Notes: generated by a model from the letters alone, not told the origin. A stretch of DNA of 64,000 bases from Rhodospirillales bacterium (GCA_965221855.1 CBDCSV010000010.1:67650-131649), one strand, 5' to 3'. Shown: positions 6,637 to 53,329, numbered from the stretch's first letter. Translations and numbers: made by a program.

Positions 6637-7293
6637 TCATTTCGAGATCAACATGCTCTCGTAATTGCCGCCCATGACCTCGCTCACCGGCTGGCCGGCC
6701 TCGACGGCCCGGGCCATGTCGGCTTCCTTGGCGGCTATTTCCTCGGCCTTTCGGACCACCTCTTCGGCCCGGTCCCGGGGCACGAAGACAACCCCCGATC
6801 CGTCGGCCAGAACCAGATCGCCGGGCCGGACGTTCACGTCACCGACGGTAATCGGGACGTCCCATTCCAGTTCGGCAATCCGCCCGCGGGCGGTGAACGA
6901 GGTCGCCTGCCGGGCAAACACCGGATAGCCGACCTCCCGGCTCTCATCCATATCCCGTGCCGGCCCGTCGACGATGGTCCCGGACAACCCCTTGGCGGCC
7001 GCGGCCCGGGAGAGGATACCCCCCCAGCCCGCGGCGATCTCGGTCGCGTGGTTTTCGATCACCACCACATCGCCGGGGGCGGCGGCATCGACCGCCGCGG
7101 TACAGAGGTGGCGTTTCGGGATATCCGGGCTCGGCGGTCCCAGCCGAACGGTTTGCACCTTCCCGCCGAAACGCTTGGTCACCGAATGGGCATCGAGCCC
7201 GATCACCGTTCCCGGCACCCCAAGCGCATCGCAGGCATCGGAAAGCGCACAGGTATCGACGGCTCGAAGTCTATCAGCAAGGCTGTCGCTCAT
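6637..7293 (-). CDS. RraA-family protein, likely 4-hydroxy-4-methyl-2-oxoglutarate / 4-carboxy-4-hydroxy-2-oxoadipate aldolase type
   Basis: 218 aa from MSDSLADRLRAVDTCALSDACDALG. It has the RraA/DMK-methyltransferase-like fold motifs (GDVVVIE, GGILS, IVDGPARD). It lies 11 nt downstream of an amidohydrolase in a LigJ-containing operon. The track start was trimmed. Confidence 0.65.
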   Translation of the reverse strand: MSDSLADRLRAVDTCALSDACDALGVPGTVIGLDAHSVTKRFGGKVQTVRLGPPSPDIPKRHLCTAAVDAAAPGDVVVIENHATEIAAGWGGILSRAAAAKGLSGTIVDGPARDMDESREVGYPVFARQATSFTARGRIAELEWDVPITVGDVNVRPGDLVLADGSGVVFVPRDRAEEVVRKAEEIAAKEADMARAVEAGQPVSEVMGGNYESMLISK

Positions 7294-7304
7294 GGCGCTG
7301 ACCT

Positions 7305-8282
7305 CTAAAGATTGAAGATGCGTTCCGCGTTCTTCGATTTGACGGCGTCGTGGGCGTCCGCCGGCAGGCTCTCGATGCGCGCCAGGCAGCCCTTCATGTC
7401 GCCCACGTTGTGCGGATAGTCGGACCCGTAGAGAATCCGGTCCTTGCCGGCCACCTTGTGGCACAGGTCCAGCCCGTCGCCGGTATAGGAAATCGAATCG
7501 AAATAGAGCTGTTCGAAATACTCGCTTGGATGCCGGTCGATTTTCTCGCGCGCCGGCGGCATGTTGTCCCAGGCGGTGTCCAGGCGGCCCATCAGGTAGG
7601 GCAACGCGCCCCCCGCGTGACAGACGATGATCTTGAGCTTCCGGTGGATATCGAAGAAGCCGTCGAAGATCATCCGCGAGATGGCAAGGGTGGTGTCGAA
7701 CATGAACCCGACCGAGAACACCAGATTGAACCGCTGCATGTCCATTTCCCCGACGCCGGGCGGCGCGCCGGGATGGACGAGCACGGGCAGCGCCTTGTCA
7801 TCGATCGCCTTCCAGACGGGGGCGTAAAGGGGATCCGTCAAGGACGTGCCGGCGACGCTCGCGGAAACGAACACGCCGACCGCCCCCAGCTCGAGCGCGC
7901 GCTCGAGCTCGGTCACCGCCGCATCCGGATACTGCCAGGGCAGCGTGGCAAAGAAGCGGATGCGGTCGGGCCAGCGTTTCTGCTGGGCCGCCATATCGTC
8001 GTTCATCATCCGCGCGGTCCCGGTGCTGATCTCCTCGCCGCCCCAGTAGCAGCTCGGACAGGTCAGGGACACGATGGCGACATCGACGCCGCATTCGTCC
8101 ATGTCCTTGATCCGCTGCTCATAATCGAACATGGGGTCCATGAGGGTCATGAACGGCGCGCCCGCCTCATGAATGACACGCTGCCCCATCAGTTCCTTGA
8201 CCGTGAAGCCGCCGCCGTACGCCAAAATACGGTCGAGCCACTCGTCGTTGAGCATATGGGTATGGACGTCGATGACGGTCAT
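7305..8282 (-). CDS. Amidohydrolase-2 family protein (ACMSD/LigW-type non-oxidative decarboxylase or hydratase)
   Basis: 325 aa from MTVIDVHTHML (metal-binding HxH). Later motifs are VHPG and YGSDYPH. The track start was trimmed to the ATG at 8282. Confidence 0.75.
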   Translation of the reverse strand: MTVIDVHTHMLNDEWLDRILAYGGGFTVKELMGQRVIHEAGAPFMTLMDPMFDYEQRIKDMDECGVDVAIVSLTCPSCYWGGEEISTGTARMMNDDMAAQQKRWPDRIRFFATLPWQYPDAAVTELERALELGAVGVFVSASVAGTSLTDPLYAPVWKAIDDKALPVLVHPGAPPGVGEMDMQRFNLVFSVGFMFDTTLAISRMIFDGFFDIHRKLKIIVCHAGGALPYLMGRLDTAWDNMPPAREKIDRHPSEYFEQLYFDSISYTGDGLDLCHKVAGKDRILYGSDYPHNVGDMKGCLARIESLPADAHDAVKSKNAERIFNL

Positions 8283-8313
8283 CTGGCGCCTCTCTCGATT
8301 CGCGGCCGGCCGG

Positions 8314-9336
8314 TCAGTTGATGTCGAGCTTGAACAGGTCGATGGCGTTCCGGCTGAGGATCTTGTTCTTGTCCTCGTCCGAGATGAAGTCGATGGCCTG
8401 CACCGAGGGCGCGACATCGTCCAGCAGCTTTCCGGTCACCGGGTGCTTCTGCGAGCCGACTCCCGGGCATTCGGCGCCGAACAGGCAATTTTCCGGGCCA
8501 ACGGTCTTGACCAGCAATTCGACCGCATCCTGGGTATAGAGCACCGTGTCGTAATAGAGCTTCTTCATGCGCTCGGAAAACAGCTTCGCCGGGTCTCCGC
8601 CGGCGCGGCGGACCGAACCCGCCTCGAAGCGGCCGAGCTGATAGGGGATGGCGCCGCCGCCGTGGGAGACCAGAATCTTCAGGTCCGGGAAGTCATCGAA
8701 AACCTGGGAGTTCACCAGCCCGAATACGGCCGTGGTCTCCTCGTTGATGAAGTGGAGGGTATAGGGCTCCCGCTCGGCCCGCGAGCCGGTGCCGTGAATG
8801 TGGGCGACGACATCGAGCTCACAGAGTTTCTCGTACAGCGGATACCAATACCGGTCGCCCATGGGCGGCGGCTGGACGCCCGAGTTCTCGAAGGGATCGG
8901 GATTCAGAAGACAGCCCTTGAAACCGAGTTCGTTTACGCAGCGCTCCAGCTCGGCGATGGCCATATCGAGGGGCTCGCCGGCACATTGCGGCAGCCCCGC
9001 GATGCCAAAAAACCGGTCGGGATAAATCTGGGTCTCCCGATGGATGATGTTGTTCACCTCTTCGTGGAACCACTGCACGATGCGCACCGGCTTCTCGGAA
9101 TGCATCAATTGGAACGGCCTCGGGCTGACCATCTGGCGGTCGGTCTTCACATGGTCGATATAGTCCATGTGCGAGAAGAGGCCGATCTCGGCATGCTCTT
9201 CGACCGCATGGCGAATTTGGTCGTCGGTAACCTTGACGCCGCCCCGCCCATGGGTCCCGCGGGACGCGATTTGCGACGCCTTGAAAGCCCAGAGCTCCGC
9301 CGGGGCGCTGACGTGTGCATGACAATCAATGATCAC
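8314..9336 (-). CDS. ligJ: 4-oxalomesaconate hydratase (LigJ/GalB-type amidohydrolase)
   Basis: 340 aa. The segments MIIDCHAH..., AELERCVNELGFKGCLLNPDP, RYWYPLYEKL and SHGGGAIPY match my recollection of Sphingobium LigJ. Confidence 0.65.
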   Translation of the reverse strand: MIIDCHAHVSAPAELWAFKASQIASRGTHGRGGVKVTDDQIRHAVEEHAEIGLFSHMDYIDHVKTDRQMVSPRPFQLMHSEKPVRIVQWFHEEVNNIIHRETQIYPDRFFGIAGLPQCAGEPLDMAIAELERCVNELGFKGCLLNPDPFENSGVQPPPMGDRYWYPLYEKLCELDVVAHIHGTGSRAEREPYTLHFINEETTAVFGLVNSQVFDDFPDLKILVSHGGGAIPYQLGRFEAGSVRRAGGDPAKLFSERMKKLYYDTVLYTQDAVELLVKTVGPENCLFGAECPGVGSQKHPVTGKLLDDVAPSVQAIDFISDEDKNKILSRNAIDLFKLDIN

Positions 9337-9584: not shown

Positions 9585-10652
9585 ATGCCCATCAAACCGC
9601 CGTCCGGCGTCTCGATCCACAACAAGTCCAAGGCACAGAAGGGCTTCACGCTTTTTGCGCCGATCAGGAAACCCACGGCCTACCTGATCGACATGCAGGG
9701 CAACCCGGTCCACCGCTGGAAGCTCGGGCGCGGCGGCATCAACCACGCCATGCTGCTCGACAACGGGAACCTGTTCATCGCCCAACACGGCGACGGCGGT
9801 CCGCCGCTCATCGCCGGCAAGGGCGGCCTGCTTCGCGAATATGACTGGGACGGAAAGGTCGTCTGGGAGCACTACGACGAGATGCAGCACCATGATGCGC
9901 GGCGGCTGAAGAACGGCAACGCCATCTACATTGCCTGGGAACCGCTGCCGAAGAAGCTGCATCGCCGGGTCAAGGGCGGCCTGCCCGGCAGCGAGGCCCC
10001 GGACGGTCATATATACGGCGACGTCATTCGCGAGGTGAACCCGTCCGGCGACATCGTCTGGGAGTGGCGCTCCAGCGAGCTCGAGATCGAGGACTATCCA
10101 ATCGTTCCGCTTTGGAATCGCGAGGAGTTCGCCCATGCCAATACGGTCGCGCCGATGCCCAACGGTGATCTTCTCCTGAGCTTCCGGGTGATCAACACCA
10201 TCATGATCATCGACAAGAAGACCCGGAAGGTGAAGTGGGAGATGCGGGACGAACGGTTCGGCGGCCAGCACGACTGCCATATGCTTCCCAACCGAAAAAT
10301 TCTGGTCTTCGCGAACGGGCAGCTCACCGGCTGGGAGCATCCCCATTCGCGGATCGTGGAAATCGATCCCAAAACCAAAAAGTGGGGCTGGCAGTACCGT
10401 GCCGAACGGGGCCTCGACTTCTTCAGTCCGCATATTTCCGGCGCGCAGCGCCTGCCGAACGGCAACACGCTGATTTGCGAAGGCGGATACGGCCGCCTGT
10501 TCGAGGTGACCCGCGAGGGAAAAATCGTCTGGCAGTTCGTCAATCCCCATCACTCGCCTCACCCGGTGCTCGGCGAGCACAACTGGGTGTTCCGGGCCTA
10601 TCGCTATACCGCCGACAGCAAACAGATCCGCCGCCGCGCCAAACAGTCATAG
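9585..10652 (+). CDS. Arylsulfotransferase (ASST)-like beta-propeller protein, paralogue 1, no signal peptide
   Basis: 355 aa with repeated NGN/DG blades and the motifs HHDA, AHANTV and GGQHDCH. It aligns end to end with the next gene. Confidence 0.6.
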   Translation: MPIKPPSGVSIHNKSKAQKGFTLFAPIRKPTAYLIDMQGNPVHRWKLGRGGINHAMLLDNGNLFIAQHGDGGPPLIAGKGGLLREYDWDGKVVWEHYDEMQHHDARRLKNGNAIYIAWEPLPKKLHRRVKGGLPGSEAPDGHIYGDVIREVNPSGDIVWEWRSSELEIEDYPIVPLWNREEFAHANTVAPMPNGDLLLSFRVINTIMIIDKKTRKVKWEMRDERFGGQHDCHMLPNRKILVFANGQLTGWEHPHSRIVEIDPKTKKWGWQYRAERGLDFFSPHISGAQRLPNGNTLICEGGYGRLFEVTREGKIVWQFVNPHHSPHPVLGEHNWVFRAYRYTADSKQIRRRAKQS

Positions 10653-10674
10653 CCACAGACAGGAAATCCCAACC

Positions 10675-11742
10675 ATGCCCGTCAAACCCGAACCCGGTGT
10701 CTCCGTTTGGAAGAAGAGCAAAGCCCAGCGCGGCTTCACCCTGGTCACGCCGATCACCGCCCCCTATACCCGATTGGTCGACATGGAAGGCAACGTGGTC
10801 CACGAGTGGCAGCTCAAATCGCGGGACGCCAATTACGGCCGCCTGCTGCCCAACGGCAATTTGTTCTCCAACGAGCGCGAAATGTCTCTCGGCCCGGAAC
10901 TGTGGGCGGGCAAGGGCGGCGCCATGCGCGAATACGATTGGGACGGCAATCTGGTCTGGGAGCATGTCGATGAGATGCAGCATCACGACGCCCGGATGCT
11001 GCCCAACGGCCACTGCATCTACATTGCCTGGAAGAAGCTGTCCAACAAGCAGGCCAAGAAGGTCAGAGGCGGCCTGCCGGGCACGGAAATGCCGGACGGC
11101 TCGATCCTCGGCGATGTGGTGCGCGAAGTCGACCGCAAGGGCAAGGTGGTCTGGGAATGGTTCGTCGGCGACCTGAAATTTAAGGATCACCCCATTGGAC
11201 CGTTCGCGCCCCGGCACGAATGGGCCCATGCCAACACCGTCGCGCCGATGAACAACGGCGACATCCTCGTGAGCTTCCGGGTCACCAATACCATCATCTG
11301 CATCGGCAAGAAGTCCGGGAAGGTGAAGTGGTTCATCCGGGACGACCAGTGGGGCGGACAGCACGACTGCCATCAGCTGGAGAACGGCAACATCCTGATG
11401 TTCGCCAACGGCAATTTCGCCCCGGGGCGCCACCCCTATTCCAGGGTGGTGGAGTTCAAGCCGAAGTCGGGGAAACCGGTCTGGGAATACAAGGACGAGA
11501 CCGCGCTCAACTTCCTGAGCCCGCACATCTCCGGCTGCCAGCGGTTGTCCAACGGCAATACGCTGGTCTGCGAGGGCGGCTATGGGCGGCTCTTCGAGGT
11601 GACGCCGGAGGGGGAACTGGTCTGGCAATATGTGTGCGACTACGAAGGCGCGCACCCGGCCGCCGGCAAAATGAACTGGATTTTCCGCACCTATCGCTAC
11701 ACGGCGTCTTCGCCGGAGATCCGGCGGCGGCTGAAACTTTAG
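10675..11742 (+). CDS. Arylsulfotransferase (ASST)-like beta-propeller protein, paralogue 2, no signal peptide
   Basis: 355 aa, the same length as paralogue 1 and gap-free against it, at roughly 55-60% identity by eye. It starts 22 nt after paralogue 1. Confidence 0.6.
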   Translation: MPVKPEPGVSVWKKSKAQRGFTLVTPITAPYTRLVDMEGNVVHEWQLKSRDANYGRLLPNGNLFSNEREMSLGPELWAGKGGAMREYDWDGNLVWEHVDEMQHHDARMLPNGHCIYIAWKKLSNKQAKKVRGGLPGTEMPDGSILGDVVREVDRKGKVVWEWFVGDLKFKDHPIGPFAPRHEWAHANTVAPMNNGDILVSFRVTNTIICIGKKSGKVKWFIRDDQWGGQHDCHQLENGNILMFANGNFAPGRHPYSRVVEFKPKSGKPVWEYKDETALNFLSPHISGCQRLSNGNTLVCEGGYGRLFEVTPEGELVWQYVCDYEGAHPAAGKMNWIFRTYRYTASSPEIRRRLKL

Positions 11743-11746
11743 CCGT

Positions 11747-12187
11747 TTACGCCGCCGGGCGCTTGCGCAGCATCACCGGGCGCCCGGCCTTGCCGGCGAT
11801 TTTCCAGCCGCTATCGGTGCGCACCAGTTTTTCCTGGTAGAGGAAGATGACGCCGGGCCCCTCCAAGGGCGCCGGGCCGTCCAGCTTTTCTTCGCCGATA
11901 TGCCGGTAGATGGTTACGTATTCGGCGCTCTCGGCGTTGTCCTCGTCGAGCACGCGGATATCCAAATTCGTGACGCAGTGCCGGATGACCATGCCCTCCT
12001 CGCGGTCCTGCATTGCCGCCATGATGGCATCCCGCCCCTCCAGCATCTCGCCCTGGCGCTTCCAGGTGCCGTTCTCGGCGAAGAGATCAACCAACTCGTC
12101 GTAACGGCCTGCATCAAGGCTATTGTAGAAGCGCGTGACGACCTGCGCGCAATCCCACTCGATTTGGCGTTCCTTCTCTCTTTCCAT
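11747..12187 (-). CDS. SnoaL-like / NTF2-fold protein
   Basis: 146 aa from MEREKERQIEWDCAQVVTRFYNSLDAGRYDELVDLFAENGTWKRQGE, a typical SnoaL_4/ring-hydroxylating beta-subunit-like N-terminus. The track start was trimmed. Confidence 0.6.
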   Translation of the reverse strand: MEREKERQIEWDCAQVVTRFYNSLDAGRYDELVDLFAENGTWKRQGEMLEGRDAIMAAMQDREEGMVIRHCVTNLDIRVLDEDNAESAEYVTIYRHIGEEKLDGPAPLEGPGVIFLYQEKLVRTDSGWKIAGKAGRPVMLRKRPAA

Positions 12188-12391
12188 CGGCCTTGTCCCC
12201 TGGTTAACCGGTGCGCTCACCGTACAGTTTTTCAAATATCCCATCGATACCAATTTTAGCCATTGAAAATGCGCGCGGGGTCCGGTTGACTATTTTCACA
12301 GGGAACGGGCTCGTGCCGCGCAGTGATTTCGGGAACAATCGGAACCGGCGCGGCTTTCAATGGGCCGGACATTTGGCATGGGAGGCATCCC

Positions 12392-13309
12392 GTGGCGCAG
12401 TTTCTGCTGCAACGGCTGACAATTTCTCTCCTGGTCGCGATCACCGTATCGATTATCGGTTTCAGCTTGCTGCGCCTCTCCGGCGATCTGGCGGCGGAAC
12501 TGGCGGGCGAGGATGCCACCCAGGAAGAGATAGCCCAGGTGGCCAAAGCCTACGGCCTGGACCGGCCATTTCACATTCAATACCTGGACTGGGTCGGCAA
12601 GGCCCTGCAGGGCGACTTGGGCCGCTCCCTGTTCACCAACGAGCCGGTTCTCGAGCTGATCACCACCCGGTTGCCGGTCACCGTGCAGCTCGCCACCTAT
12701 TCGCTGATCCTCGCCCTGCTGGTGGCGCTTCCGCTGGGTGTGCTGGCGGCAATGAAGCAGAATACCTGGATCGACCGACTATCCCTCTCCATTGCGGTTT
12801 TCGGTCAGGCCATTCCGAGCTTCTGGTTTGCCCTGCTGATGATCCTGTTCTTTGGCGTGATCCTGCAGTGGCTTCCCATTTCCGGCACGGACACATGGCG
12901 GCATTTCATTATGCCCACCATCACGCTCAGCACCTTCGCGATGCCCCAGTTCATGCGGCTCACGCGGACCGGCATGCTGGACGTTCTGGAATCCGATTTT
13001 ATTCGGACCGCCCGGGCGAAGGGCCTGAGCCCCGTAATCGTGCTGTGGAAGCACGCGCTCAGAAACGCGGTCCTGCCCGTCGTCTCGCTGGCGGCCGTGG
13101 CGTTCGGGTTTCTTCTCGGCGGATCGTTCATCGTTGAGTCCATTTTCGCCGTCAACGGCGTCGGCTTCCTCGCGCTCGAATCCATCATTCGACAGGATTT
13201 CCCCGTGGTGCAGTCCATCGTCGTCTTTATTTCCTTCGTCTACATCGTGTTGACGCTCCTCTCCGACCTGATCAACGCGCAGCTCGATCCACGCATTCGG
13301 CTGACCTAG
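12392..13309 (+). CDS. Opp/Dpp-type ABC transporter permease (DppB-like)
   Basis: GTG start with GGGAGG 6 nt upstream. It reads VAQFLLQRLTISLLV... and ends ...DPRIRLT. It has 6 TM helices and an EAA-like loop. Confidence 0.85.
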   Translation: MAQFLLQRLTISLLVAITVSIIGFSLLRLSGDLAAELAGEDATQEEIAQVAKAYGLDRPFHIQYLDWVGKALQGDLGRSLFTNEPVLELITTRLPVTVQLATYSLILALLVALPLGVLAAMKQNTWIDRLSLSIAVFGQAIPSFWFALLMILFFGVILQWLPISGTDTWRHFIMPTITLSTFAMPQFMRLTRTGMLDVLESDFIRTARAKGLSPVIVLWKHALRNAVLPVVSLAAVAFGFLLGGSFIVESIFAVNGVGFLALESIIRQDFPVVQSIVVFISFVYIVLTLLSDLINAQLDPRIRLT

Positions 13310-13319
13310 AGAGCGCGGT

Positions 13320-14249
13320 ATGGCACCTCAGGATCAGGCGACATCACAGACGGCAAACGGCTTCACCGCGGAGGAGTTCGAAGTCGAGGCGCCCTCCCCG
13401 CGCGAGGTGATGCGGCGGCGGGCCAAACGCCATTTCGGGCTGATCATCGGCGGCGGCGTCGTCTCCATCACCATCGTCTGTGCCGTATTCGCGCCGTTGA
13501 TAGCGCCGTTCGACCCGTATGAGCAGGACCTCACCCGCCGGCTGATTGATCCGGTGTGGGGCGAAGACGGCACCTGGACGCACCCGCTGGGCACCGACGG
13601 CTTTGGCCGCGACTTCCTCAGCCGGCTGATTTTCGGCGCCCGGATCTCTCTCACCATCGGATTTTTCGCCGCCAGTATCGCGGCGGTGGTCGGTTCCATC
13701 ATCGGGATGGTTGGCGGATACTTCGGCGGCCGGGTCGATGCGGTCGTCATGTACCTGATCAACAGCAAACTCGCTCTGCCGCCCATCCTCGTCGCGTTGT
13801 CGGTGGTCTCGGTATTCGGCGGCGCCATTCCGGTGCTCATCGCGGTCCTGGCCGCTCTCTTCTGGGATCGCTATGCCGTGGTCACCCGGAGCGTCACCCA
13901 GCAAATCCGCAATCAGGACTTCATCGCCGCGGCCCAGGCCGCCGGCTGCTCCAACGCACGGATCATTCTGTCCGAGGTGCTGCCCAACCTCGCCAACCAG
14001 ATCATCGTCATCGCCAGTCTGGAGATGGCGGTTGCCATTCTGGTCGAGGCCGTCCTGTCGTTTTTCGGCCTCGGCGTCCAGCCGCCGACCCCGTCCTGGG
14101 GCCTGATGGTCTCCGAGGGCCGGGATTTCATGTACTTCGACCCCTATCTGATTACCATCCCCGGACTTGCCATCTTCGTCCTTGTGATCGCCATCAACAT
14201 GATGGGTGACGGCGTCCGCGACATCACCGCCCCCGAGGGGCGGAACTAA
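13320..14249 (+). CDS. Opp/Dpp-type ABC transporter permease (DppC-like)
   Basis: 309 aa with the HPLGTDGFGRDFLSRLIFGAR motif and a C-terminal GDGVRD. Confidence 0.85.
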   Translation: MAPQDQATSQTANGFTAEEFEVEAPSPREVMRRRAKRHFGLIIGGGVVSITIVCAVFAPLIAPFDPYEQDLTRRLIDPVWGEDGTWTHPLGTDGFGRDFLSRLIFGARISLTIGFFAASIAAVVGSIIGMVGGYFGGRVDAVVMYLINSKLALPPILVALSVVSVFGGAIPVLIAVLAALFWDRYAVVTRSVTQQIRNQDFIAAAQAAGCSNARIILSEVLPNLANQIIVIASLEMAVAILVEAVLSFFGLGVQPPTPSWGLMVSEGRDFMYFDPYLITIPGLAIFVLVIAINMMGDGVRDITAPEGRN

Positions 14250-14258
14250 GGGGCGGAC

Positions 14259-15326
14259 ATGGTTGCCGACACCGCGGATATTCCCTACGGCGAAGACTCG
14301 ATCCTGGAGGTCCGGGGCATGAACGTGGATATCAGCGTTCCCGCGGGAACGCTGCACGCGGTCACCAACTCGATGTTTCACGTGAAACAAGGCGAGACCC
14401 TCTGCATCGTCGGCGAGTCTGGCTGCGGGAAATCCATCACCTCGCTCGCGGTGATGGGGCTGCTGCCGAGCAACGCCACGGTCACGGCGGATATGCTGAA
14501 GTTCGAGGGCCGGGATCTGCTGTCCATGAGCCAGAAACAGCTCTCCGAACTGCGCGGCAACCGAATGGGCATGATCTTCCAGGACCCGATGACGTCCCTG
14601 AACCCGGTCTACACCATCGGCAACCAGATACAGGAAATCTACGTCCGGCACGGCAAGGGCAACGCCGGCCAAGCCAAGGACCGGGCGATCTATCTGCTGG
14701 AGAAGGTGGGCATCACCGCCGCCGAAAGCCGGCTCGGCCAATACCCCCATCAGCTTTCGGGGGGTCTGCGTCAGCGGGTGATGATCGCCATGATGCTGAT
14801 GAACGACCCGGTTCTGATCATTGCCGATGAACCGACCACCGCGCTCGACGTCACGATCCAGGCGCAGATTCTCCATCTGCTGGCCGATCTGCAAAAAGAA
14901 TTCAACATGGCGCTGATCCTGATCACTCATGATCTGGGCGTGGTCGCCAGGATCGCCGATCGGGTGGCCGTCATGTACGCGGGCTACATGGTTGAAACCG
15001 GCTCTTCCGACGAAGTGTTCAATGCGCCCATGCATCCCTACACCCAGGGCCTGATCGACTGCATCCCCATTCCCGGCAAGACCGAGCGCGGCGCCCAACT
15101 CGGGTCCATTCCCGGGATCGTTCCGGCCCTGGTCGGCGACCAGGAAGGCTGCATGTTCCGGAGCCGCTGCGACTATGCCCAGGAGGTCTGCGGGACCGGC
15201 GTCATCGAGCGCCAGGCGCTCGGCGAACTTCGCGGCTATCGCTGCGTCATCGGGCCCGAACAGGCACAGGCCAATCTTCAAGCCAGCCGCGCGAAGGCGG
15301 CGGTGGCGGCGGGGGAACAAGGATGA
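14259..15326 (+). CDS. Opp/Dpp-type ABC transporter ATP-binding protein (DppD-like)
   Basis: Walker A GESGCGKS, signature LSGGLRQR, Walker B IIADEPT, and a C-terminal oligopeptide-type extension. Confidence 0.9.
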
Positions 15327-16303
15327 ACGCCGATGCGCCCGTCCTCGAATGCCGCGACGTCAGCCGCACCTTCATGATCGGCAAGGGCCCGTTCGTTCAG
15401 AAGAAGCCGCTTCGTGCGGTGCAGGATGTCAGCCTCAGTATCGAGCGCGGCGAGGTCCTGGCCGTCGTCGGTGAATCGGGATGCGGCAAGACCACGCTGG
15501 CGAAGATGCTGCTCGGCCTGCTGCCGCCGTCCGGCGGCGAAATCTTCTTCGAGGGCGTGCCGCTCAGCTCGGTCGACCGGCATGCTGTATCGCGGCGCAT
15601 CCAGCCGGTGTTTCAGGACCCCTACTCATCCCTCAACCCGCGGAAAACCCTGGCCTCGATCATCTCCCTTCCGCTCGACGTCCACAGGATCGGCACGCCC
15701 GACGAACGCAAGCGGCGGGTCGAGGAGATCATGGAACTGGTCGGCCTGCCGCGCCGGCTGCTCTACTCGTACCCGAGCCAACTGTCCGGCGGCCAGCGCC
15801 AGCGCGTGGCCATCGCCCGGGCGCTGGCCATCAAGCCGGAGATACTGGTCTGCGACGAGCCCACGTCGGCGCTGGACGTGTCGGTACAGGCGCAGATCCT
15901 GAACCTGCTCCAGGAACTTCGGGACGAACTCAACCTGACCTACGTGTTCATCAGCCACAATCTGGCCGTGGTCGAGCACATGTCCACCCGGGTGGCGGTG
16001 ATGTACCTGGGACGCCTGATCGAGTTCGGCACCGCGGCGCAGGTCTTCGACGACCCCAAACACCCCTATACCTCGGCATTGCTGGATTCGGTCCTGACGC
16101 CCGAACCCCAATACGGCCTGCCCGAAATCACCACCATGGGGCGGGAATTTCCCAACCCCCTCAATCCGCCGCCGGGGTGCGCCTTTCACCCCCGGTGCCC
16201 CAGGGCCATGGATGTCTGCAGTCAGGCGCAGCCCCGGCCGACCGATGAGAACGGCCGGCTGCTGGAATGCCATCTCTATGGCGAGGAAACCGCGGCGGCG
16301 TGA
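15323..16303 (+). CDS. Opp/Dpp-type ABC transporter ATP-binding protein (DppF-like)
   Basis: Walker A GESGCGKT, LSGGQRQR, LVCDEPTSALD. It has an ATGA overlap with the upstream ATPase gene. Confidence 0.9.
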   Translation: MNADAPVLECRDVSRTFMIGKGPFVQKKPLRAVQDVSLSIERGEVLAVVGESGCGKTTLAKMLLGLLPPSGGEIFFEGVPLSSVDRHAVSRRIQPVFQDPYSSLNPRKTLASIISLPLDVHRIGTPDERKRRVEEIMELVGLPRRLLYSYPSQLSGGQRQRVAIARALAIKPEILVCDEPTSALDVSVQAQILNLLQELRDELNLTYVFISHNLAVVEHMSTRVAVMYLGRLIEFGTAAQVFDDPKHPYTSALLDSVLTPEPQYGLPEITTMGREFPNPLNPPPGCAFHPRCPRAMDVCSQAQPRPTDENGRLLECHLYGEETAAA

Positions 16304-16358
16304 CATCCGGCCCGCATTTCAGGGTCATAGTCTGCGCGGCGTGGCAAAGGCCGGGCGT

Positions 16359-16381
16359 AAAAAAACCGCCGAAAACGGCGG
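16359..16381 (-). terminator. Candidate intrinsic terminator acting on the minus strand
   Basis: CCGCCG-AAAA-CGGCGG stem-loop (16366..16381). It is preceded on the plus strand by A7, which reads as a T7 tract after the hairpin on the minus strand. Confidence 0.5.
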
Positions 16382-16762
16382 CTGCGGGTCGAACGGCTGG
16401 AGCGATGCGCACGGCTCCCGATCCTAGGAAAAATATATACCATAACTGTCGCATATGTCGCAAGCTTTTTTTTAATTTTTTTCATAAAATCGTAGAATTT
16501 ACATAAAACCCAGGAAAACCAGTCGTTACGGCAAAAAAAAAGTTGCCGAGAGGCATGGGAGTCGTCGTCCATTGCGGCGTAAACGGTTGGTCTTGGAATT
16601 AAATCTTCAAAAAACGTGAATTCAACGGGTTGACAGAAGAACCCAGCCCCCGGGATGAACTCACGAAAAATCTTCCGGTCCGGCGTCGTCGGACGGGTTT
16701 CGGCGCGCCCGTGGACGCGCGGCGCGCGTCGCGCAGACCATGACCCTGGCGGGAAATGCGGG

Positions 16763-17644
16763 CTATTCGAAGCCGTAGAGGCGGTTGGGGTTGTCGACCA
16801 GCAGCTTTTGGCGAAGCTCTTCGTCAACGGCGAACTTGGGAATGATGTCGACCAGTTCGCCGTCATCCGGCACCTGCCCCGGTTTCATGTTGGGGTGCGG
16901 CCAGTCGGTGCCCCAGAGCACCCGGTCCGGCGCCTTTTCGACCAGAGCCCTGGCGATCGCCGCGGCATCGTCATAGGGCGAACCGGTCTTGGAGATTCTC
17001 TCCGAACCGCTCACCTTCACCCAAACGTTGTCGTATTCCATGAACTTCAGGAGCGTCTGCATGGGCGCGGCCTCGAGGCCCTGGGACGGGTCCACCCGGC
17101 CCATGTGATCGATGACGATGGGCAGGGGCAGCTTGGCGAACATGTCCTCGTAATCGACGATGTCCCGGTCATCCAGATGCAGCACCACGTGCCAGCCGAG
17201 TTCGGCGATGCGGGGGATGACGTTATGGAAAACGTCCAAATCCGGGGGTCCGCCGAGATGGCGGACGAAATTGAACCTGGCCGCCAGGACCCCGCCCGCG
17301 GTCAGGTCGGCCAACTCCTCGTCCGTGACGTCGTCGTCGACCATGCCGACGCCCTTGTAACGGCCGTTGCTGGTCCGGATGGCGTCAACCATCGCCGAAT
17401 TGTCGGTGCCATGGCAGCTCGCCTGAACGATCACGCAGCGCTCGATGCCCAGGTGGTCGTGAAGAGCCTTCAGGTCCGCCTTGGATGCGTCGGGCGGGGT
17501 GTAGCTGCGGTTCGGCGCGTAAGGGAACAGCGCGCCCGGGCCGAATACATGACAGTGGGCGTCGCAGGCCTTTGCCGGCATTTCAAAGCCCGGTTTGCGG
17601 GGGTCCGGGTGCGGGGCCAGGATATCCGGCACGAACTCGGTCAT
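16763..17644 (-). CDS. ligI: 2-pyrone-4,6-dicarboxylate lactonase (LigI-type amidohydrolase)
   Basis: 293 aa with DAHCHVFGP, HVVLHLD, IDHMGR and WGTDWPHPN, the LigI/amidohydrolase-2 pattern. It lies immediately downstream of galD. Confidence 0.75.
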   Translation of the reverse strand: MTEFVPDILAPHPDPRKPGFEMPAKACDAHCHVFGPGALFPYAPNRSYTPPDASKADLKALHDHLGIERCVIVQASCHGTDNSAMVDAIRTSNGRYKGVGMVDDDVTDEELADLTAGGVLAARFNFVRHLGGPPDLDVFHNVIPRIAELGWHVVLHLDDRDIVDYEDMFAKLPLPIVIDHMGRVDPSQGLEAAPMQTLLKFMEYDNVWVKVSGSERISKTGSPYDDAAAIARALVEKAPDRVLWGTDWPHPNMKPGQVPDDGELVDIIPKFAVDEELRQKLLVDNPNRLYGFE

Positions 17645-17662: not shown

Positions 17663-18778
17663 TTATTCGGCGGCCACTGGCCGGGATTGATGTCCGTCCC
17701 AAACCGATTTGGGGATCAGTACGCTGCCTTCGAAGAGGCGGCGCGCCGTCCTGAGCAGGGCGGCCCGCTTGATGACCGGACCGGCTTCCGAACCCTCCAT
17801 CTCCATTTCCACGGAGAACTCGCCCGTCGGGTGCTCGACGGACATGAGCTTCGGCGAGCCCTCCGGCAATCGCGCAACGTCGGCGGCCACCGACCCCTCG
17901 ACGGCGCACGCGGTTGCGACGGAAACGGCCGCGAACACGCCGATAGCGGCATGACAGTCATGAGGGATAAAGGACCGGGTGCAGACCGCGCCGCCCGCTT
18001 GCGGCGGTGCGACCAAAGTCATCTTGGGAACGGTCTTTCCGGCAACGTCGCCCAGATTCATCATCCCGCCGATCGCCAGCCTAATTTCCTCGAGCCGTTC
18101 CTTGAGCCGCGCATCTCCGTTCAACTCGTCGCGGCCTTCGTAACCGGTGCGGCCCAAGGATTCGGCATTGATGCAAGCCACGGGCATTCCGTTGTCGATC
18201 ATGGTGACGGGCACGCCCAGCACCTCGTCCCGCGCATTCCCGGTCGGGAGCAGCGCACCGCACAACGAGCCCGCCATGTCGAGGAAGTTGATCATCACCG
18301 GCGCGGCGGCGCCCGGTACGCCGTCGATCCGCGCCTCGCCGTCATATTGCGGCTGTCCGTCCGGCGACGGGAAGGTCACGTCGCACAAACTGTCCGAATT
18401 CGCCATGTAAACCCGAAGGGTGGTCTCCGGATCGCCGCCCTCGATCATCCCCGCTTCGATGGCGAATTGCCCGACCCCGGCCAGGATATTGCCGCAGTTC
18501 TGGAGCGTCGTGGCGCGCGGTTCATCGACCGCGACCTGGACGAACAGGTATTCGAGGTCGACGCCGTCGCGTTCCGACCGGCTGACCACGCCGACCTTGC
18601 TGGTCAGCGGGTTGGCCCCGCCCACGCCGTCAATCTGCCGGTCGTCGGGAGACCCCATCACCGAAAGCAGAACCGCGTCCCGGACGGCCGGGTCGGCCGG
18701 CAGATCCTCGGCGCGGAAATAGGCGCCCTTGGAGGTGCCGCCGCGCATCATGACGCAGGGGATGGCTGTCTGACTCAT
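17663..18778 (-). CDS. galD: 4-oxalomesaconate tautomerase (PrpF superfamily; GalD/LigU)
   Basis: 371 aa from MSQTAIPCVMMRGGTSKGAYF, then QIDGVGGANPLTSKV, NCGNILAGVG and RSFIPHDCHAAIGVF. This gives close collinearity with my recollection of Pseudomonas putida GalD. The track start was trimmed. Confidence 0.8.
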   Translation of the reverse strand: MSQTAIPCVMMRGGTSKGAYFRAEDLPADPAVRDAVLLSVMGSPDDRQIDGVGGANPLTSKVGVVSRSERDGVDLEYLFVQVAVDEPRATTLQNCGNILAGVGQFAIEAGMIEGGDPETTLRVYMANSDSLCDVTFPSPDGQPQYDGEARIDGVPGAAAPVMINFLDMAGSLCGALLPTGNARDEVLGVPVTMIDNGMPVACINAESLGRTGYEGRDELNGDARLKERLEEIRLAIGGMMNLGDVAGKTVPKMTLVAPPQAGGAVCTRSFIPHDCHAAIGVFAAVSVATACAVEGSVAADVARLPEGSPKLMSVEHPTGEFSVEMEMEGSEAGPVIKRAALLRTARRLFEGSVLIPKSVWDGHQSRPVAAE

Positions 18779-18859: not shown

Positions 18860-18892
18860 AAAAAAGGCGGGACGGGCAAGGGCCCGTCCCGC
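18860..18892 (-). terminator. Intrinsic terminator on the minus strand
   Basis: Perfect 11-bp stem GCGGGACGGGC/GCCCGTCCCGC with a 4-nt loop (18867..18892). It is followed on the minus strand by T6 (A6 at 18860..18865 on the plus strand). It lies between the NMT1-like gene and galD. Confidence 0.75.
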
Positions 18893-18895
18893 GCC

Positions 18896-18959
18896 TAGAT
18901 CGGATCATGTTTTGACGGAACCACGGCGCGGTTTCGTCAAAACATGTGAATCCGATCTA
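18896..18959. mobile_element. MITE (about 64 bp) derived from IS630-type terminal inverted repeats, copy 1
   Basis: TAGATCGGATCATGTTTTGACGGAACC...GGTTTCGTCAAAACATGTGAATCCGATCTA. The arms match the IS630 type A right IR (TAGAGCGTTTCATATTTTGACGGAAGCG) at 22 of 28 positions by my alignment. It starts and ends with TA. Confidence 0.65.
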
Positions 18960-18970
18960 TTTCAATAGTG

Positions 18971-41878: not shown

Positions 41879-42930
41879 GAGCGTATTTGAGATTGATTGA
41901 ATCATTTTAGGGATTCCCAAGTATGGGCGAACCATGATTCAAGATGGATGCTGGGCAAGGAGGCCAGCATTCATGGCGAGACCTTATTCGATTGATTTGC
42001 GAGAGCGTGTTGTTTTGGCGGTTTTGGCGGGGGAGAGTTGCCGCGCTGTAGCGGCTCGGTTTGGGGTTGCGGTTTCGAGCGTGGTTAAGTGGTCGCAGCG
42101 CTACCGGTGGACGGGGAGTGTTGCGCCCGGCAAGATGGGCGGTCACCGCCGCCGGGTTCTTGAGCCCCATCGGGAGTTCATTGTCGGCCGGATCGACCAG
42201 GAGCCGCATCTGACGCTGCATCGGTTGAGAGACGAGTTGGCCGCTCGGGGTGTCAGGGTATCCCACAGCACGGTATGGCTGTTTCTGCGCCGTGAAGGGC
42301 TGCGCTTTAAAAAAAACCCTGTTCGCCGTTGAACGGGCGCGCGCGGACATCGCCCGCCATCGCAGGCGCTGGAAGGCGTGGCAGGCAAAGCTTGATCCCG
42401 AACGGCTGGTATTCATTGATGAAACCTGGATCCGGACCAATATGGCCCCGCTGCGCGGCTGGGGGCCGAAAGGGGAGCGGGTCCGCGGCTTTGCCCCCCA
42501 TGGGCGGTGGCACACCCTGACCTTCATCGGCGCGCTGCGCTGCGACCGGTTCACCGCGCCCTGCGTCTTCGACGGCCCCATCAATGGCGTGTGCTTCCGC
42601 GCCTACGTCGAGCAGCTGCTCGTGCCGACCCTGGTGCCCGGCGACATCGTCATCATGGACAATCTCGGCAGCCACAAGTCAAAAGCCGTGCGAAACGCCA
42701 TCCGTGCCGCCGGAGCCAAGCTGTGGCTCCTGCCCAAATATTCCCCCGACCTCAATCCCATCGAGCAGACCTTTGCCCAAATCAAGCACTGGATGAGAAA
42801 CGCCCAGAAGCGGGAGATCGACGACTTATGGCGCCATCTCGGGAGCCTCATCGACACCATCGAGCCACAGCAATGCGCCAACTACTTCAAAAACGCAGGA
42901 TACGCTTCCGTCAAAATATGAAACGCTCTA
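41877..42930 (+). mobile_element. IS630-family insertion sequence, type A, copy 2
   Basis: Same length and ends as copy 1 but in inverted orientation. orfA differs at one residue (RYRW versus RYRR). Confidence 0.9.
41934..42921 (+). CDS. IS630-family transposase (two frames, A8 at 42309..42316)
   Basis: orfA is 41934..42332 and orfB is 42250..42921. See copy 1. Confidence 0.85.
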
Positions 42931-43020
42931 GCTGTTGCGGGGTGACGCCCGGGCGCGGCCGAGGCATGGCCCCGTCCGGGCGGCATTTTCTTTGCGCCCG
43001 CCGCCTTGTACCCTGCTTTC

Positions 43021-49969: not shown

Positions 49970-50233
49970 GACCCGGCCGCCTTCGCCGCCCGGCTTTTCA
50001 CGTCTTCGGTGGCCGGCCGCGCCGGGACCGCCGGCATCGGCGTCGGCTCACCAATCGCTTTGGACCTGAGGATGGCCGGGACCATGTTTGGCGCGTCTTC
50101 CAGAATGTGAACGTTCAACTCCGGCGGGGCATCCCGGCTCCCCGGTATTTTGTACCTCGACGGCCCGAGGGTTTTGAGATGCTCCCCATCGTTCCAGACA
50201 AGTGACGCCGGCGTCAACCGTCCCTTGCCCCGG
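49966..50233 (-). pseudogene. C-terminal remnant of a xanthine dehydrogenase/aldehyde oxidase molybdopterin subunit (XdhB-like), split by IS256 copy 2; continues at 51523..51608
   Basis: With the IS and one TSD copy removed it reads ...GQSPNPAAHMGRIMRLHVRGKGRLTPASLVWNDGEHLKTLGPSRYKIPGSRDAPPELNVHILEDAPNMVPAILRSKAIGEPT. Compare the conserved XDH C-terminus as I recall it: NPAIDIGQIEGAFVQGMGW..EELVW....G.L.T.GPSTYKIP...D.P..F.V.L....PN......SKAVGEPP. The frame is closed upstream by the DUF3237 stop, and the position of the catalytic Glu (GQIEG) reads M. Confidence 0.6.
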
Positions 50234-51513
50234 GGTGACGTAAAAATTTATGTGTCAGTTGGGAATGGGGTACTCCCTGTGGTTTACGACAACCGCAAGA
50301 AGGAGCACCCCGATGCCACAGCAAGCTGTAACGATTGAGAACCTACCACAAGCCTTTGAGGTGGTGAAGGAGATGCAAGCAGGCGGATTGGACTGGGGCG
50401 AGGGTTATCGCCCGCTTGGCCGCCAGGCGCTGGCCGAGATCATCGAGGGCCGGATGGCCGAGGCGGTGGATCGCTGGCTCGACGGCCTCGATGGCAGCGC
50501 TATGCGCGACCGGCGCAACGGCACCTACCGGCGCCGCCTGCTCAGCGAGCTCGGCGACATCGAGCTCAACGTGCCGCGCACCCGGCACTTCTGCCCGACC
50601 GAGGTTCTGAAGAGCTACGCAAGGCGCGCTCCAGAGATCGACCGCGCCATCCTGGCCGGCTTCGTGCTGGGGCTCTCGACCCGCAAGGTCGGCGAGGTCC
50701 TGCTTGCCCTGCTCGGGCGTCCGGTCTCGGCCGCGACGGTGAGCCGGGTCGCCAAGACCCTCGATCTGTCGGTCGCCGCATTCCACCGCCGGCCGCTGAA
50801 GAACGCCTACAAGGCGCTGATGCTCGACGGCGTGGTGCTGGCCTGCAAGACCGGCGCCGGCGCGCTCAGGAGGCCGGTCCTGGTGGCGCTGGGCATACGG
50901 CACGACGGCAAGAAGGAGATTATCGACTTCCAACTCGCCGCCAGCGAGAGCGCCGCGGAGTGGGAGCGCTTCCTCACCGCGTTGCACCGCCGCGGCCTCA
51001 CCGGCGAGGGCCTTGAGATGATCTGCGTTGATGGCGGCCAAGGCCTGCTCGCCGCCTTGCCGATCGTCTATCACGGCATCCCCGTTCAGAGGTGCTGGGC
51101 GCACAAAATCAGGAACATCCTCAACAAGGTCCGCGTAGCCGACCAGCAGGCCGTCAAGGCCGACGTCCACGCCGTCATGAATGCCCCCAACCGCCGCAAG
51201 GCCGAGACCGCCGCCCGCCGCTTCGCCGACGCCTGGGAAGATACCTACCCCAAGGCCGTCGCCTGCCTGCGCAACGACCTCGACGACCTGCTCACCTGCT
51301 TCCGCTACAAGGACCTCGCCGAGCGAAAGCAGGTCAGGACCACCAATGCCATCGAACGGAGGTTCCGCGAGGTTCGCAGACGAACCCGGCCCATGGGAAC
51401 CTTCAAGGATAAAACCTCAATGGACCGCATCCTCTTCGCGGTCTTCATTCACGAAAACAAGTCTCAGGGAATCAGTACCCCAGTCTCCCTGACACATAAC
51501 TCTTGACGTTACC
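50234..51513 (+). mobile_element. IS256-family insertion sequence, copy 2
   Basis: Same ends as copy 1. A 9-bp target duplication TTGCCCCGG is present at 50225..50233 and 51514..51522. Confidence 0.9.
50250..51506 (+). CDS. IS256-family transposase
   Basis: The translation is identical to copy 1. Confidence 0.9.
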   Translation: MCQLGMGYSLWFTTTARRSTPMPQQAVTIENLPQAFEVVKEMQAGGLDWGEGYRPLGRQALAEIIEGRMAEAVDRWLDGLDGSAMRDRRNGTYRRRLLSELGDIELNVPRTRHFCPTEVLKSYARRAPEIDRAILAGFVLGLSTRKVGEVLLALLGRPVSAATVSRVAKTLDLSVAAFHRRPLKNAYKALMLDGVVLACKTGAGALRRPVLVALGIRHDGKKEIIDFQLAASESAAEWERFLTALHRRGLTGEGLEMICVDGGQGLLAALPIVYHGIPVQRCWAHKIRNILNKVRVADQQAVKADVHAVMNAPNRRKAETAARRFADAWEDTYPKAVACLRNDLDDLLTCFRYKDLAERKQVRTTNAIERRFREVRRRTRPMGTFKDKTSMDRILFAVFIHENKSQGISTPVSLTHNS

Positions 51514-51608
51514 TTGCCCCGGACGTGGAGCCGCATGATCCGGCCCATATGGGCAGCCGGGTTCGGGGATTGCCCCCATCCCGGGGGATATGGGCTTCGA
51601 TTAAGCCC

Positions 51609-52076
51609 CTACTCCACCACGTAGAGGCGCATCTTGACCCCGTCGGCCAGCCGCGCGCCGGTGCCGACGAACAGCATGTCGTTGACCCAGGCGTAGCGCT
51701 CGTCGCCGGTCTCGAGCCGCGCCTGGGTGCGCATGTAATAGTCCGCCGGATCGGCCTCCTCTCCCGCCGCGATGGCCCGGATGATTTCGGGCGGCCCGTG
51801 ACGGAAGCCGTAATTGACGATCTCGATCAGCGCCCCGTCATCGGTCTCCATGGCGTAGCGGGTATCGAGCTCCGCCGTGCCGCCCTCGAAGACGGTCTGC
51901 CAGTCGGCGCCGAGGTTGAGGATGGTCCCCTTGATGCCGGGCCCGTCCACCGTGCCGCCGATGATGGGAATGATGCGCCGCCTGCCGGCGCGGCCCTGGC
52001 CCATCTCCCGGGCGGGGCCCAGCTCCACCGAGAGATCGCAGAAATGCCGGAGCGCCGGGGCCGGAAGGTCCGTCAT
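51609..52076 (-). CDS. DUF3237 (UPF0311) family protein
   Basis: 155 aa from MTDLPAPALRHF, then IIPIIGGTVDGPGIKGTILNLGADWQ and DTRYAMETDDGALIEIVN. Its start overlaps the galA stop (ATGA). Confidence 0.75.
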   Translation of the reverse strand: MTDLPAPALRHFCDLSVELGPAREMGQGRAGRRRIIPIIGGTVDGPGIKGTILNLGADWQTVFEGGTAELDTRYAMETDDGALIEIVNYGFRHGPPEIIRAIAAGEEADPADYYMRTQARLETGDERYAWVNDMLFVGTGARLADGVKMRLYVVE

Positions 52077-53329
52077 TCGTCGGCCCCCGCGTTGGAGTAG
52101 TGCACGGCGACGTTCCGCGACTTCATGAACTCCTCGATGGTCTCGCCCCGGAACTGGGCGTAGACGTCCGGGTTGGACATGCCGAGGACCACCGCCAGTT
52201 TCTCGATGACGAAGAATATGACCCCGTAATGGATCAGGCCGATGAAATCCCTGGCCTCCAGGAGGTCGCGCTCCTCCCGGGTGATGCCGAACTCCTCGCA
52301 CAGGGCATCCCGGTCCTCCAAGAACCGCCGGCGGTGCTCCGACTCGGTCAGCCGGTGGAGGAAGCCGTTCAGCCGGAACGCCTTGTGGCTCCAGTCGAGG
52401 GTGAAGGGATAGGTGCCGGCGAGTTCATCGATACCGTCGAGCTGACGGGCCACCTTCGCCCGGTGTTCCTCGACCGCCTGGGGTTCGGTCTCCGATAGGT
52501 TTTCGTAGATCACCGTCGCGATGGTGGTCATGGACGGCAGCGTCAGGTCCCGGTGGACCCGCTTGACGTTGGCCGACAGCGCGCCCCGCATGATCAGCCA
52601 CATGATCACCTCGGCGCCCTCGAACCCGCCCCGCTTGGCGTATTCGGCGTGGGTGATTTCGGTGAGCGCGCGCGGGTCGTTCTCCAGCAGGTCGAGAAAC
52701 CGGTTGTCCCAGTCCAGGTCGTTGTAGCCCGCCCGCTCGCCGTGTACCTGGTGGGACAGGCCGCCGGTCGCGGCGATCACCACCTTCAAATCCTCGGGGT
52801 AGCTCTCGATGGCGCGCCTCAACGCCCGGCCGAGCCGGTAGCAGCGGTTGGCGGTCGGCACGGGGTATTGCAGCACGCCGACCTGAAACGGGATGACCGC
52901 CTCGTTCCACGCCTGGCCCCGGTCGGTCATCATGGAGAGCGGCGAGAACAGCCCGTGGTCCACCGGCCGCTTCTGAAAGAACGAGATGTCGAACTCGTCG
53001 GCGAACAGGGAGTGGCCGATGTGGCCCGCGAGTTCCGCATGTCCCTTCACCGGCGGGTATTCCCGCCGCCCGCCGCCCTCGTCCGCGGTCACGTATTCCG
53101 TGTCGATGCCCATGACGAAGGGCGAATAGTGATCCATGAAGAACGACGTGACGTGATCGTTGTAGATGTGAAAGATCACGTCCGGCTTGTTGTCGATCAG
53201 CCATCGCCGGACCGGATCGAACACCTGAAACACCGCCGCCCAGGCCGGATCGTCGGGCGAGGCGTTGTCCTTGGCGAAACCGATGGTCGGGGTGTGGGAT
53301 GCGCCGATGCCGGCGATGATGCGCGCCAT
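52073..53329 (-). CDS. galA: Gallate dioxygenase (fused LigB-like and LigA-like domains)
   Basis: 418 aa from MARIIAGIGASHTPTIGFA, then YNDHVTSFFMDHYSPF, VDHGLFSPL, TGGLSHQVHGERAGYN and a C-terminal LIHYGVIFFVIEKLAVVLG. It is collinear with my recollection of the about 420-aa P. putida GalA. The track start was trimmed. Confidence 0.85.
   Translation of the reverse strand: MARIIAGIGASHTPTIGFAKDNASPDDPAWAAVFQVFDPVRRWLIDNKPDVIFHIYNDHVTSFFMDHYSPFVMGIDTEYVTADEGGGRREYPPVKGHAELAGHIGHSLFADEFDISFFQKRPVDHGLFSPLSMMTDRGQAWNEAVIPFQVGVLQYPVPTANRCYRLGRALRRAIESYPEDLKVVIAATGGLSHQVHGERAGYNDLDWDNRFLDLLENDPRALTEITHAEYAKRGGFEGAEVIMWLIMRGALSANVKRVHRDLTLPSMTTIATVIYENLSETEPQAVEEHRAKVARQLDGIDELAGTYPFTLDWSHKAFRLNGFLHRLTESEHRRRFLEDRDALCEEFGITREERDLLEARDFIGLIHYGVIFFVIEKLAVVLGMSNPDVYAQFRGETIEEFMKSRNVAVHYSNAGADE

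Follow-up and report, generated by a model that had tools for sequence, protein, structure and literature searches.

Inherited dispersal of gallate 4,5-cleavage genes in an insertion-sequence-rich Rhodospirillales genome

The DNA analysed here (CBDCSV010000010.1:67650-131649; 64,000 nucleotides, hereafter the window) carries genes of the gallate/protocatechuate 4,5-cleavage pathway, among them those for the gallate dioxygenase GalA, the 4-oxalomesaconate (OMA) tautomerase GalD/LigU and the lactonase LigI. The original prediction for this DNA held that the pathway had been scattered across three loci by the activity of insertion sequences (IS). We found that the dispersed layout is inherited and was not made by IS. 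Taken as a whole, the results are likely best explained by modules that were ancestrally unlinked, a later IS invasion, and recombination between IS elements that brought one cluster nearer to galA. Aromatic-acid catabolism would thus have been assembled from small, ancestrally unlinked modules, which some 208 IS copies would have invaded later.

The window belongs to a metagenome-assembled genome of an uncultured Rhodospirillales lineage (G000; 10 contigs, 4.19 Mb), which we compared with six congeners (G001-G006, G006 being complete, so that seven genomes of the genus were available) and with other genera, including a different genus, g9, represented by G014. Gene identities were assigned with curated equivalog models and their cut-offs, Pfam domains and a PDB sequence search against solved structures; the NCBIfam models gave no match for the two Amidohydro_2 proteins of the window, and the PDB search resolved both. 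The proteins LigY and LigJ were told apart by a maximum-likelihood tree, pairwise identity and bit scores, with the catalytic residues of LigY judged by motif conservation in the alignment only, and whole-genome tblastn was used to look for a better LigJ candidate. Clustering was surveyed in 80 species with a GalA homologue, within a 10-kb radius around GalA.

Dispersal of the pathway genes across relatives

In all six congeners galA is unlinked from the cluster that carries galD and the LigY-like gene: the two are on separate contigs or, in the complete genome G006, 1.4 Mb apart (galA at 0.38 Mb, ligJ at 1.02 Mb and galD/ligI at 1.78 Mb). Separate contigs also carry galA and galD in genus g9, and LigJ was on another contig in every relative checked. 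Since the separation of galA from ligI/galD is found in all congeners and in g9 as well, the dispersed layout is inherited. The proposed scattering by IS activity does not survive this comparison, nor is it compatible with the IS256 copies flanking galA, each of which has its own target-site duplication (TSD), or with the colinearity of the other two loci.

Dispersal of this kind is also common. GalD, LigI or LigJ lay at most 10 kb from GalA in only 19 of the 80 species sampled, and the genes were dispersed in the other 61, which means that dispersed gallate genes require no IS explanation. The clustering claimed for Sphingobium fails for the ring-cleavage gene, since in strain SYK-6 desB (SLG_03330) lies far from ligI/U/J/K (SLG_125xx) (PMC12997858).

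The six open reading frames on which the three-locus picture had been built all exist where they were placed, every one on the minus strand (Table 1). That galA stands apart from the rest, with about 33 kb between it and galD and an IS256 copy on either side, was confirmed; the other two loci, namely the LigY-like, ACMSD-like and RraA-like genes (locus 1) and ligI/galD (locus 2), proved not to be distinct. Between them there is no full-length IS but only a 147-bp MITE-like repeat at 18891-19037, and they are colinear in g9, so that loci 1 and 2 are one conserved cluster. G014 is fully colinear through the LysR regulator, the binding protein, GalD, LigI, four ABC genes and the ASST-like, LigY-like, ACMSD-like and RraA-like genes. 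This colinearity includes the genes between the two loci, where the Dpp-type ABC importer comes without a binding protein; the order of the NMT1-like binding protein and LysR beside galD is the same, and the amidohydrolase gene is kept after the LigY-like gene.

Small differences from G006 were seen within the cluster. The 147-bp repeat, downstream of galD, has several further sites in that genome at 94-95% identity, and G006 carries 1.5 kb of extra sequence at the spot of the repeat in the window. A stretch of about 455 bp that separates ligI from the ABC ATPase gene (16308-16762) has no counterpart in G006.

Table 1. Features of the window, with possible partner genes elsewhere in the genome (contig prefixes C1 and C10)
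Feature	Position	Strand	Evidence or remark
ISX (second IS630-family element), two inverted copies	2659-3716; 41874-42931	+; -	1058 bp
Left breakpoint	2659-4797	+	ISX, 22-bp native spacer, IS630; reciprocal junction on C7 at an ISX copy
IS630, two copies	3739-4797; 40821-41879	+; +	1059 bp
36-kb block	4794-40824		Colinear with G006 1771832-1807713; IS630-family elements bound both sides
RraA-family class II pyruvate aldolase/decarboxylase candidate	6637-7293	-	LigK model TIGR02798, 66.7 bits vs cut-off 304.5
ACMSD/LigW-family amidohydrolase	7305-8282	-	PF04909; ACMSD 145 bits, LigW 98-105 bits
LigY-type meta-cleavage-product C-C hydrolase	8314-9336	-	LigY (5vn5) 480 bits vs LigJ 190 bits
Two ASST-like beta-propellers, SnoaL-like protein (minus), Dpp-type ABC importer	9585-16303		Pfam; between loci 1 and 2
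ligI, 2-pyrone-4,6-dicarboxylate (PDC) hydrolase	16763-17644	-	Sphingobium LigI (4d8l) 260 bits
galD/ligU, OMA tautomerase	17663-18778	-	NF033377, 513.5 bits vs cut-off 440
NMT1-like binding protein	19067-19978	-	Pfam; beside galD
LysR regulator	20058-20966	+	Pfam
IS256 copy A, simple insertion inside the 36-kb block	38562-39844	-	TSD CCGGGCGG; flanks contiguous in G006
Right breakpoint	40821-42931		IS630 (plus) abutting ISX (minus)
IS256 copy B, simple insertion downstream of the galA operon	50231-51513	+	Transposase_mut; flanked by TSD TTGCCCCGG; G002 has the single-copy empty site
DUF3237 gene, immediately downstream of galA	51609-52076	-	PF11578, 168.6 bits
galA, gallate dioxygenase, intact	52073-53329	-	NF009904, 674 bits vs cut-off 412
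IS256 copy C, simple insertion in the galA/TAXI-TRAP divergent intergenic region	53474-54756	-	Flanked by TSD GTCCCGAG (CTCGGGAC on the plus strand); G002 has the empty site
TAXI-TRAP transporter, divergent from galA	54769-58558	+	Binding protein 54769-55887, fused permease 56042-58558
IS256 copy D, no TSD, adjacent 2.4-kb deletion	58567-59849	-	G002 has 2.4 kb here that are absent from the window
LigZ-like 336-aa LigB-type dioxygenases	C1:227785-228801; C10:233681-234685		Possible upstream partners of the LigY-like enzyme, unlinked
LigXa-like Rieske oxygenase	C1:464305-465561		Possible upstream partner, unlinked; 66% identical to one beside LigY/RraA on another contig

Identities of the genes in the three modules

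All these genes are additional members of known families, found here in an uncultured lineage. GalA stood as assigned: its score is well over the equivalog cut-off and it fuses a LigB domain (PF02900, residues 8-271) to a C-terminal LigA-like domain (PF07746, residues 320-405), the architecture by which membership of the GalA/DesB family was judged. The protein is 96-98% identical across the six congeners, in which the DUF3237 gene adjoins galA too (90-97% identity). The divergent TAXI-TRAP genes (TIGR02122, 169 bits; TIGR02123, 491 bits) encode a putative importer of aromatic acids. The original prediction was right that the window has no LigAB or LigC, and its accompanying remark on transporters overlooked this candidate adjoining galA. 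Together galA-DUF3237 and the TAXI-TRAP genes form module A, in which GalA would open gallate to OMA.

The transporter beside galA varies within the genus. It is present in G000 (window 54757-58566) and in G002, G003 and G005; in these three congeners some 150 bp separate it from galA and no IS intervenes. It was not found beside galA in G001, G004 or G006. A different gene, of 480-580 aa, occupies its position in G006 and G001.

The identities given to GalD/LigU and LigI were likewise upheld, which makes three of the six named genes genuine members of the gallate/protocatechuate 4,5-cleavage route. The former passes its model and is clearly above PrpF, for which it scored only 212.5 bits. The latter has Sphingobium LigI as its closest solved relative (E 3e-76; next best structure 128 bits), and its gene is adjacent to galD, as in the clusters of other species. 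LigI and GalD would convert PDC and keto-OMA into enol-OMA, the substrate of the hydratase. They belong to module B, which comprises LysR, the binding protein, galD/ligU, ligI, the Dpp-type importer and the ASST-like, LigY-like, ACMSD-like and RraA-like genes.

The product of the gene at 8314-9336 had been called a LigJ-like OMA hydratase, a claim said to fall if the protein were placed in another subfamily; scores, identity and tree all place it with LigY. By its sequence it is an orthologue of LigY, the OH-DDVA meta-cleavage-product hydrolase. It is 61% identical over 339 aa to SYK-6 LigY (5vn5/6e6i) and keeps the LigY motifs HxH (DCHAH), HIHGTGS, SHGGGAIPYQLGRFE and FGAECPG. In the tree it groups with SYK-6 LigY, while a protein encoded on contig C5 groups with the LigJ proteins of canonical GalA-GalD-LigI clusters, the two clades being about 1.5 changes per column apart. 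Identity to the LigJ of canonical gal clusters is 59-64% for the C5 protein and 29-36% for that of the window. Its place in the LigY clade, with 190 bits to the LigJ structures (6dwv, 2gwg) against 480 to LigY, excluded it as a LigJ orthologue. This corrects an annotation error that is easily made: a reading from sequence alone confuses sister subfamilies such as LigY and LigJ, or LigK and the other RraA-fold aldolases.

The two genes that follow were more generally named. The ACMSD/LigW-type amidohydrolase holds at the family level, its scores favouring ACMSD over LigW, and from its sequence it may be a decarboxylase or possibly a CHPD (4-carboxy-2-hydroxypentadienoate) hydratase. For the RraA-type aldolase, the family and the aldolase motif held good and equivalence to LigK did not: its score, far below the cut-off, excluded it as a LigK/GalC equivalog. 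Two of the five lower-pathway assignments, the hydratase and the aldolase, are incorrect in subfamily, and the refuting condition named in the original prediction applies to the first and, by the equivalog model, to the second. In the five congeners where an orthologue was found this is also below the LigK cut-off, and no protein in any of the seven genomes of the genus exceeds it. The protein is the product of the genome's sole RraA-type gene, and its G92-X20-R113-D114-X2-E117 aligns with Arg-123/Asp-124 (RD) of 3noj. The motif is reportedly worded G-X20-R-D-X2-E/D by Mazurkewich et al. 2014. In 3noj, a class II pyruvate aldolase, Arg-123 is catalytic and Asp-124 binds the metal (PMC5065237). 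Since the catalytic R113-D114 is kept, the RraA-like protein has probably retained class II pyruvate aldolase or decarboxylase activity.

The LigY-like/ACMSD-like/RraA-like operon is best read, by analogy, as a hydrolase, a decarboxylase or hydratase, and an aldolase, because LigY yields 5-carboxyvanillate (5CVA) and CHPD (PMC6874591), and the expected fate of CHPD is hydration to HMG followed by cleavage with an RraA-family HMG aldolase (PMC12673573). We infer that the trio most likely hydrolyses a carboxylated, biaryl-type meta-cleavage product, after which the CHPD fragment would be hydrated to HMG and split by aldol cleavage into two pyruvates, and the aromatic fragment would be decarboxylated. 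Homologues of the LigY-like gene (71-76% identity) on unrelated contigs directly adjoin an RraA-type gene (52-72% identical to the one in the window). The genes that accompany these pairs encode a Rieske oxygenase with a LigXa_C domain, a LigB-type dioxygenase of 336 aa or a Dpp-type ABC importer, which is the gene set expected of a route like that for 5,5'-dehydrodivanillate (DDVA).

The genome's LigJ is the C5 protein (C5:123112-124122), with 494 and 473 bits to the LigJ structures and 194 to LigY. It is followed by a 287-aa HpcH/HpaI-family aldolase, and the LigJ-HpcH pair is conserved in three genera and also found on two unrelated contigs, adjoining extradiol dioxygenases. Because LigK is lacking, this neighbour is the most likely CHA aldolase, probably standing in for LigK. 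Module C would accordingly pair the OMA hydratase LigJ with an HpcH/HpaI aldolase replacing the missing LigK. Both LigY-RraA and LigJ-HpcH recur widely as two-gene cassettes among marine Alphaproteobacteria.

Further aromatic genes lie outside the window. The surroundings of ligJ (C5:120032-127911; locus L002 8032-15911) encode a LigB-type dioxygenase, a 729-aa protein of the aldehyde:ferredoxin-oxidoreductase family, LigJ, the HpcH/HpaI aldolase, a VOC/glyoxalase protein, an Amdase-like protein and an aldehyde dehydrogenase. LigA/LigB-type class III extradiol dioxygenase genes at C3:97974-99241 and C10:432347-433189 score above the NF009901 subfamily cut-off, and are candidates for protocatechuate or methylgallate 4,5-dioxygenases. 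LigI paralogues occur at C1:241235 and C10:439620. One PIG-L-family gene, of the family to which GalB belongs, is present in the genome at C5:431291. A hydratase of this GalB type was considered, and the clear LigJ was preferred.

Insertion sequences and an apparently relocated block

The genome carries about 102 copies of IS256 (1283 bp), 69 of ISX (1058 bp) and 37 of IS630 (1059 bp), some 208 in total. In the complete congener G006, only diverged relatives of the three elements occur. Within the window the layout of four IS256 and two IS630 copies was as originally described, and the ISX copies are additional. An IS-swamped genome with a clean, IS-poor congener beside it makes a tidy example of IS-mediated rearrangement.

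The four IS256 copies of the window are each 1283 bp long, and the TSDs of copies A, B and C measure 8-9 bp. We rejected an IS256-galA-IS256 composite transposon, because copies B and C each have their own TSD (TTGCCCCGG and GTCCCGAG), their empty sites are preserved in G002, and this IS-free congener has the same order of ABC genes, DUF3237, galA and divergent TAXI-TRAP. The copies around galA would instead be independent simple insertions, one of which splits the galA/TRAP control region and one of which goes with the 2.4-kb deletion. Specifically, copy C interrupts the 280-bp divergent control region, where it may affect expression, and beside copy D a permease gene (59854-60492) is reduced to 212 of 335 aa. 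At the position of copy D, G006 and G001 have an unannotated open reading frame of about 480-580 aa, probably a binding protein to judge from its position alone, together with the 5' part of the permease gene. Elsewhere, copy A lies just upstream of the second of two paralogous 3-hydroxyisobutyrate-dehydrogenase-like genes (36472-37437 and 39845-40824; about 72% nucleotide identity), which flank a LacI regulator.

Beyond both ends of the 36-kb block, G006, G001 and G003 have the same native flanks. In G000 these flanks have ended up on C7 and C3, and the sequences that used to adjoin the outer segments of the window are found on C7 and C6. On the right, C3:54951 now carries the native flank and C6:690276 the partner of the flank on the galA side. 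Every one of these sequences abuts an ISX copy, and the ISX copies at all these junctions are 100% identical. The left end is consistent with an inversion in which two inverted ISX copies, both inserted at CTAG, recombined. The 22-bp spacer is native left-flank sequence, a sign of recombination at ISX, and the junction on C7 is an exact reciprocal. The right-hand rearrangement needs more than one event. A composite transposon of the form IS630-36 kb-IS630 was ruled out, as the outer flanks are two ISX copies with partner flanks on C7, C3 and C6; the TA duplication of IS630 is uninformative for this test.

Recombination at IS630-family copies therefore appears to have brought the 36-kb cluster towards galA, the opposite of scattering. 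Homologous recombination between these copies would have placed the segment with module B within about 11 kb of module A, and the ligI/galD cluster is now 33 kb from galA, compared with another contig or 1.4 Mb in the relatives. The original prediction left the choice between ongoing assembly and ongoing disruption; assembly fits the direction of change better.

The explanation with which the analysis of this DNA began has IS transposition in G000 splitting a once-clustered gallate/protocatechuate 4,5-cleavage operon into three loci. The eight IS copies in 64 kb, with galA between two of IS256 and the block bounded by IS630, would agree with it, but the separation is present in all six congeners and in two other genera, which lack these copies at these sites, copies B and C have their own TSDs and empty sites in G002, no full-length IS but only the MITE-like repeat lies between loci 1 and 2, which are colinear in g9, and each relative checked has the real LigJ on a separate contig. 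We give this explanation hardly any credence. It is also very unlikely that the new proximity is adaptive, with an IS-mediated gallate super-cluster in the course of assembly. The juxtaposition is indeed derived, being found in G000 alone among the seven genomes, and a segment relocated at random would seldom end up within about 11 kb of galA. However, about 208 IS copies lead one to expect many rearrangements, some proximity by chance is likely in a genome with at least six LigB-type or Lig-type loci, 33 kb with unrelated intervening genes does not amount to co-regulation, and LigJ remains on another contig. Chance proximity of the cluster and galA is plausible, and we do not claim selection. 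Doubtful, too, is the wider picture of a genus without LigK in which an HpcH-type aldolase beside LigJ acts on CHA and an RraA subfamily joined to LigY-type hydrolases acts on HMG, with IS recombination starting to gather the modules in G000.

Some observations weigh against ancestrally unlinked modules drawn together by recombination. The joins of the rearrangement fall within repeats of 1 kb, and the genome is metagenome-assembled, so the juxtaposition might be an assembly artefact in which wrong flanks were joined across identical ISX copies, the true genome being like G006 at both block ends. Every breakpoint falls exactly in a 100% identical ISX copy, the left junction is perfectly reciprocal on C7, and a misresolved repeat and a real inversion look alike. 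We nevertheless regard an artefact as quite unlikely, given that 208 IS copies in only 10 contigs imply reads spanning repeats of 1-2 kb, and that the right-hand partners are on two different contigs, for which a single swap is insufficient. The content of module B also counts against our reading. No LigZ- or LigXa-type gene is present in the window, candidates occurring only elsewhere in the genome, and a homologue of LigJ and one of LigK accompany LigI and GalD in a single conserved cluster, which also fits the idea that the two homologues finish the pathway. In that case the LigY-like and RraA-like proteins would be the lineage's OMA hydratase and CHA aldolase, LigI-GalD and LigY-like-RraA would make up a complete lower pathway, and LigJ/HpcH on C5 would serve another substrate. 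The four genes are kept together across two genera and the only RraA-type protein of the genome retains its aldolase motif, but the 61% identity to LigY, the clear placement in the LigY clade, the presence of a bona fide LigJ orthologue with its own adjoining aldolase, and the LigXa-like or LigB-type genes that accompany LigY-like/RraA pairs elsewhere, as for a DDVA-type module, make this assignment unlikely.

Comparison with known systems

As in the GalA-GalD-GalB-GalC system of Pseudomonas putida KT2440, a GalA with fused LigB and LigA domains and a GalD pass their equivalog models here. In contrast to KT2440, the genes are unclustered, no GalC/LigK-type aldolase passes its model, the hydratase is of the LigJ type, and in place of GalT/GalP a TAXI-TRAP transporter adjoins galA. 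The LigI-LigU-LigJ-LigK system of Sphingobium lignivorans SYK-6 is matched in the adjacency of LigI and LigU beside LysR, in a LigJ orthologue in the genome, and in a gallate dioxygenase gene unlinked from the lig cluster (desB; PMC12997858). It differs in that LigJ is here on another contig, an HpcH/HpaI aldolase adjoins LigJ, no LigK was found, and the LigAB-like genes occur at other sites (C3 and C10:432k).

The nearest counterpart of the LigY-like trio is the DDVA module of SYK-6, LigXa-LigZ-LigY-LigW, with which it shares a LigY of 61% identity, the metal-site motifs and an ACMSD/LigW enzyme next to it; the expected LigY products, 5CVA and CHPD, would be passed on to a decarboxylase and an HMG aldolase (PMC6874591, PMC12673573). 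Unlike that module, the cluster has no LigZ or LigXa, its decarboxylase is closer to ACMSD than to LigW, and it has an RraA-type aldolase and a Dpp-type ABC importer in addition.

Finally, the rearrangements resemble the inversions and translocations that homologous recombination between IS copies produces in IS-expanded genomes, with an identical IS at all breakpoints, a reciprocal junction and a TSD-less copy next to a deletion: a textbook pattern, and not that of a composite transposon.

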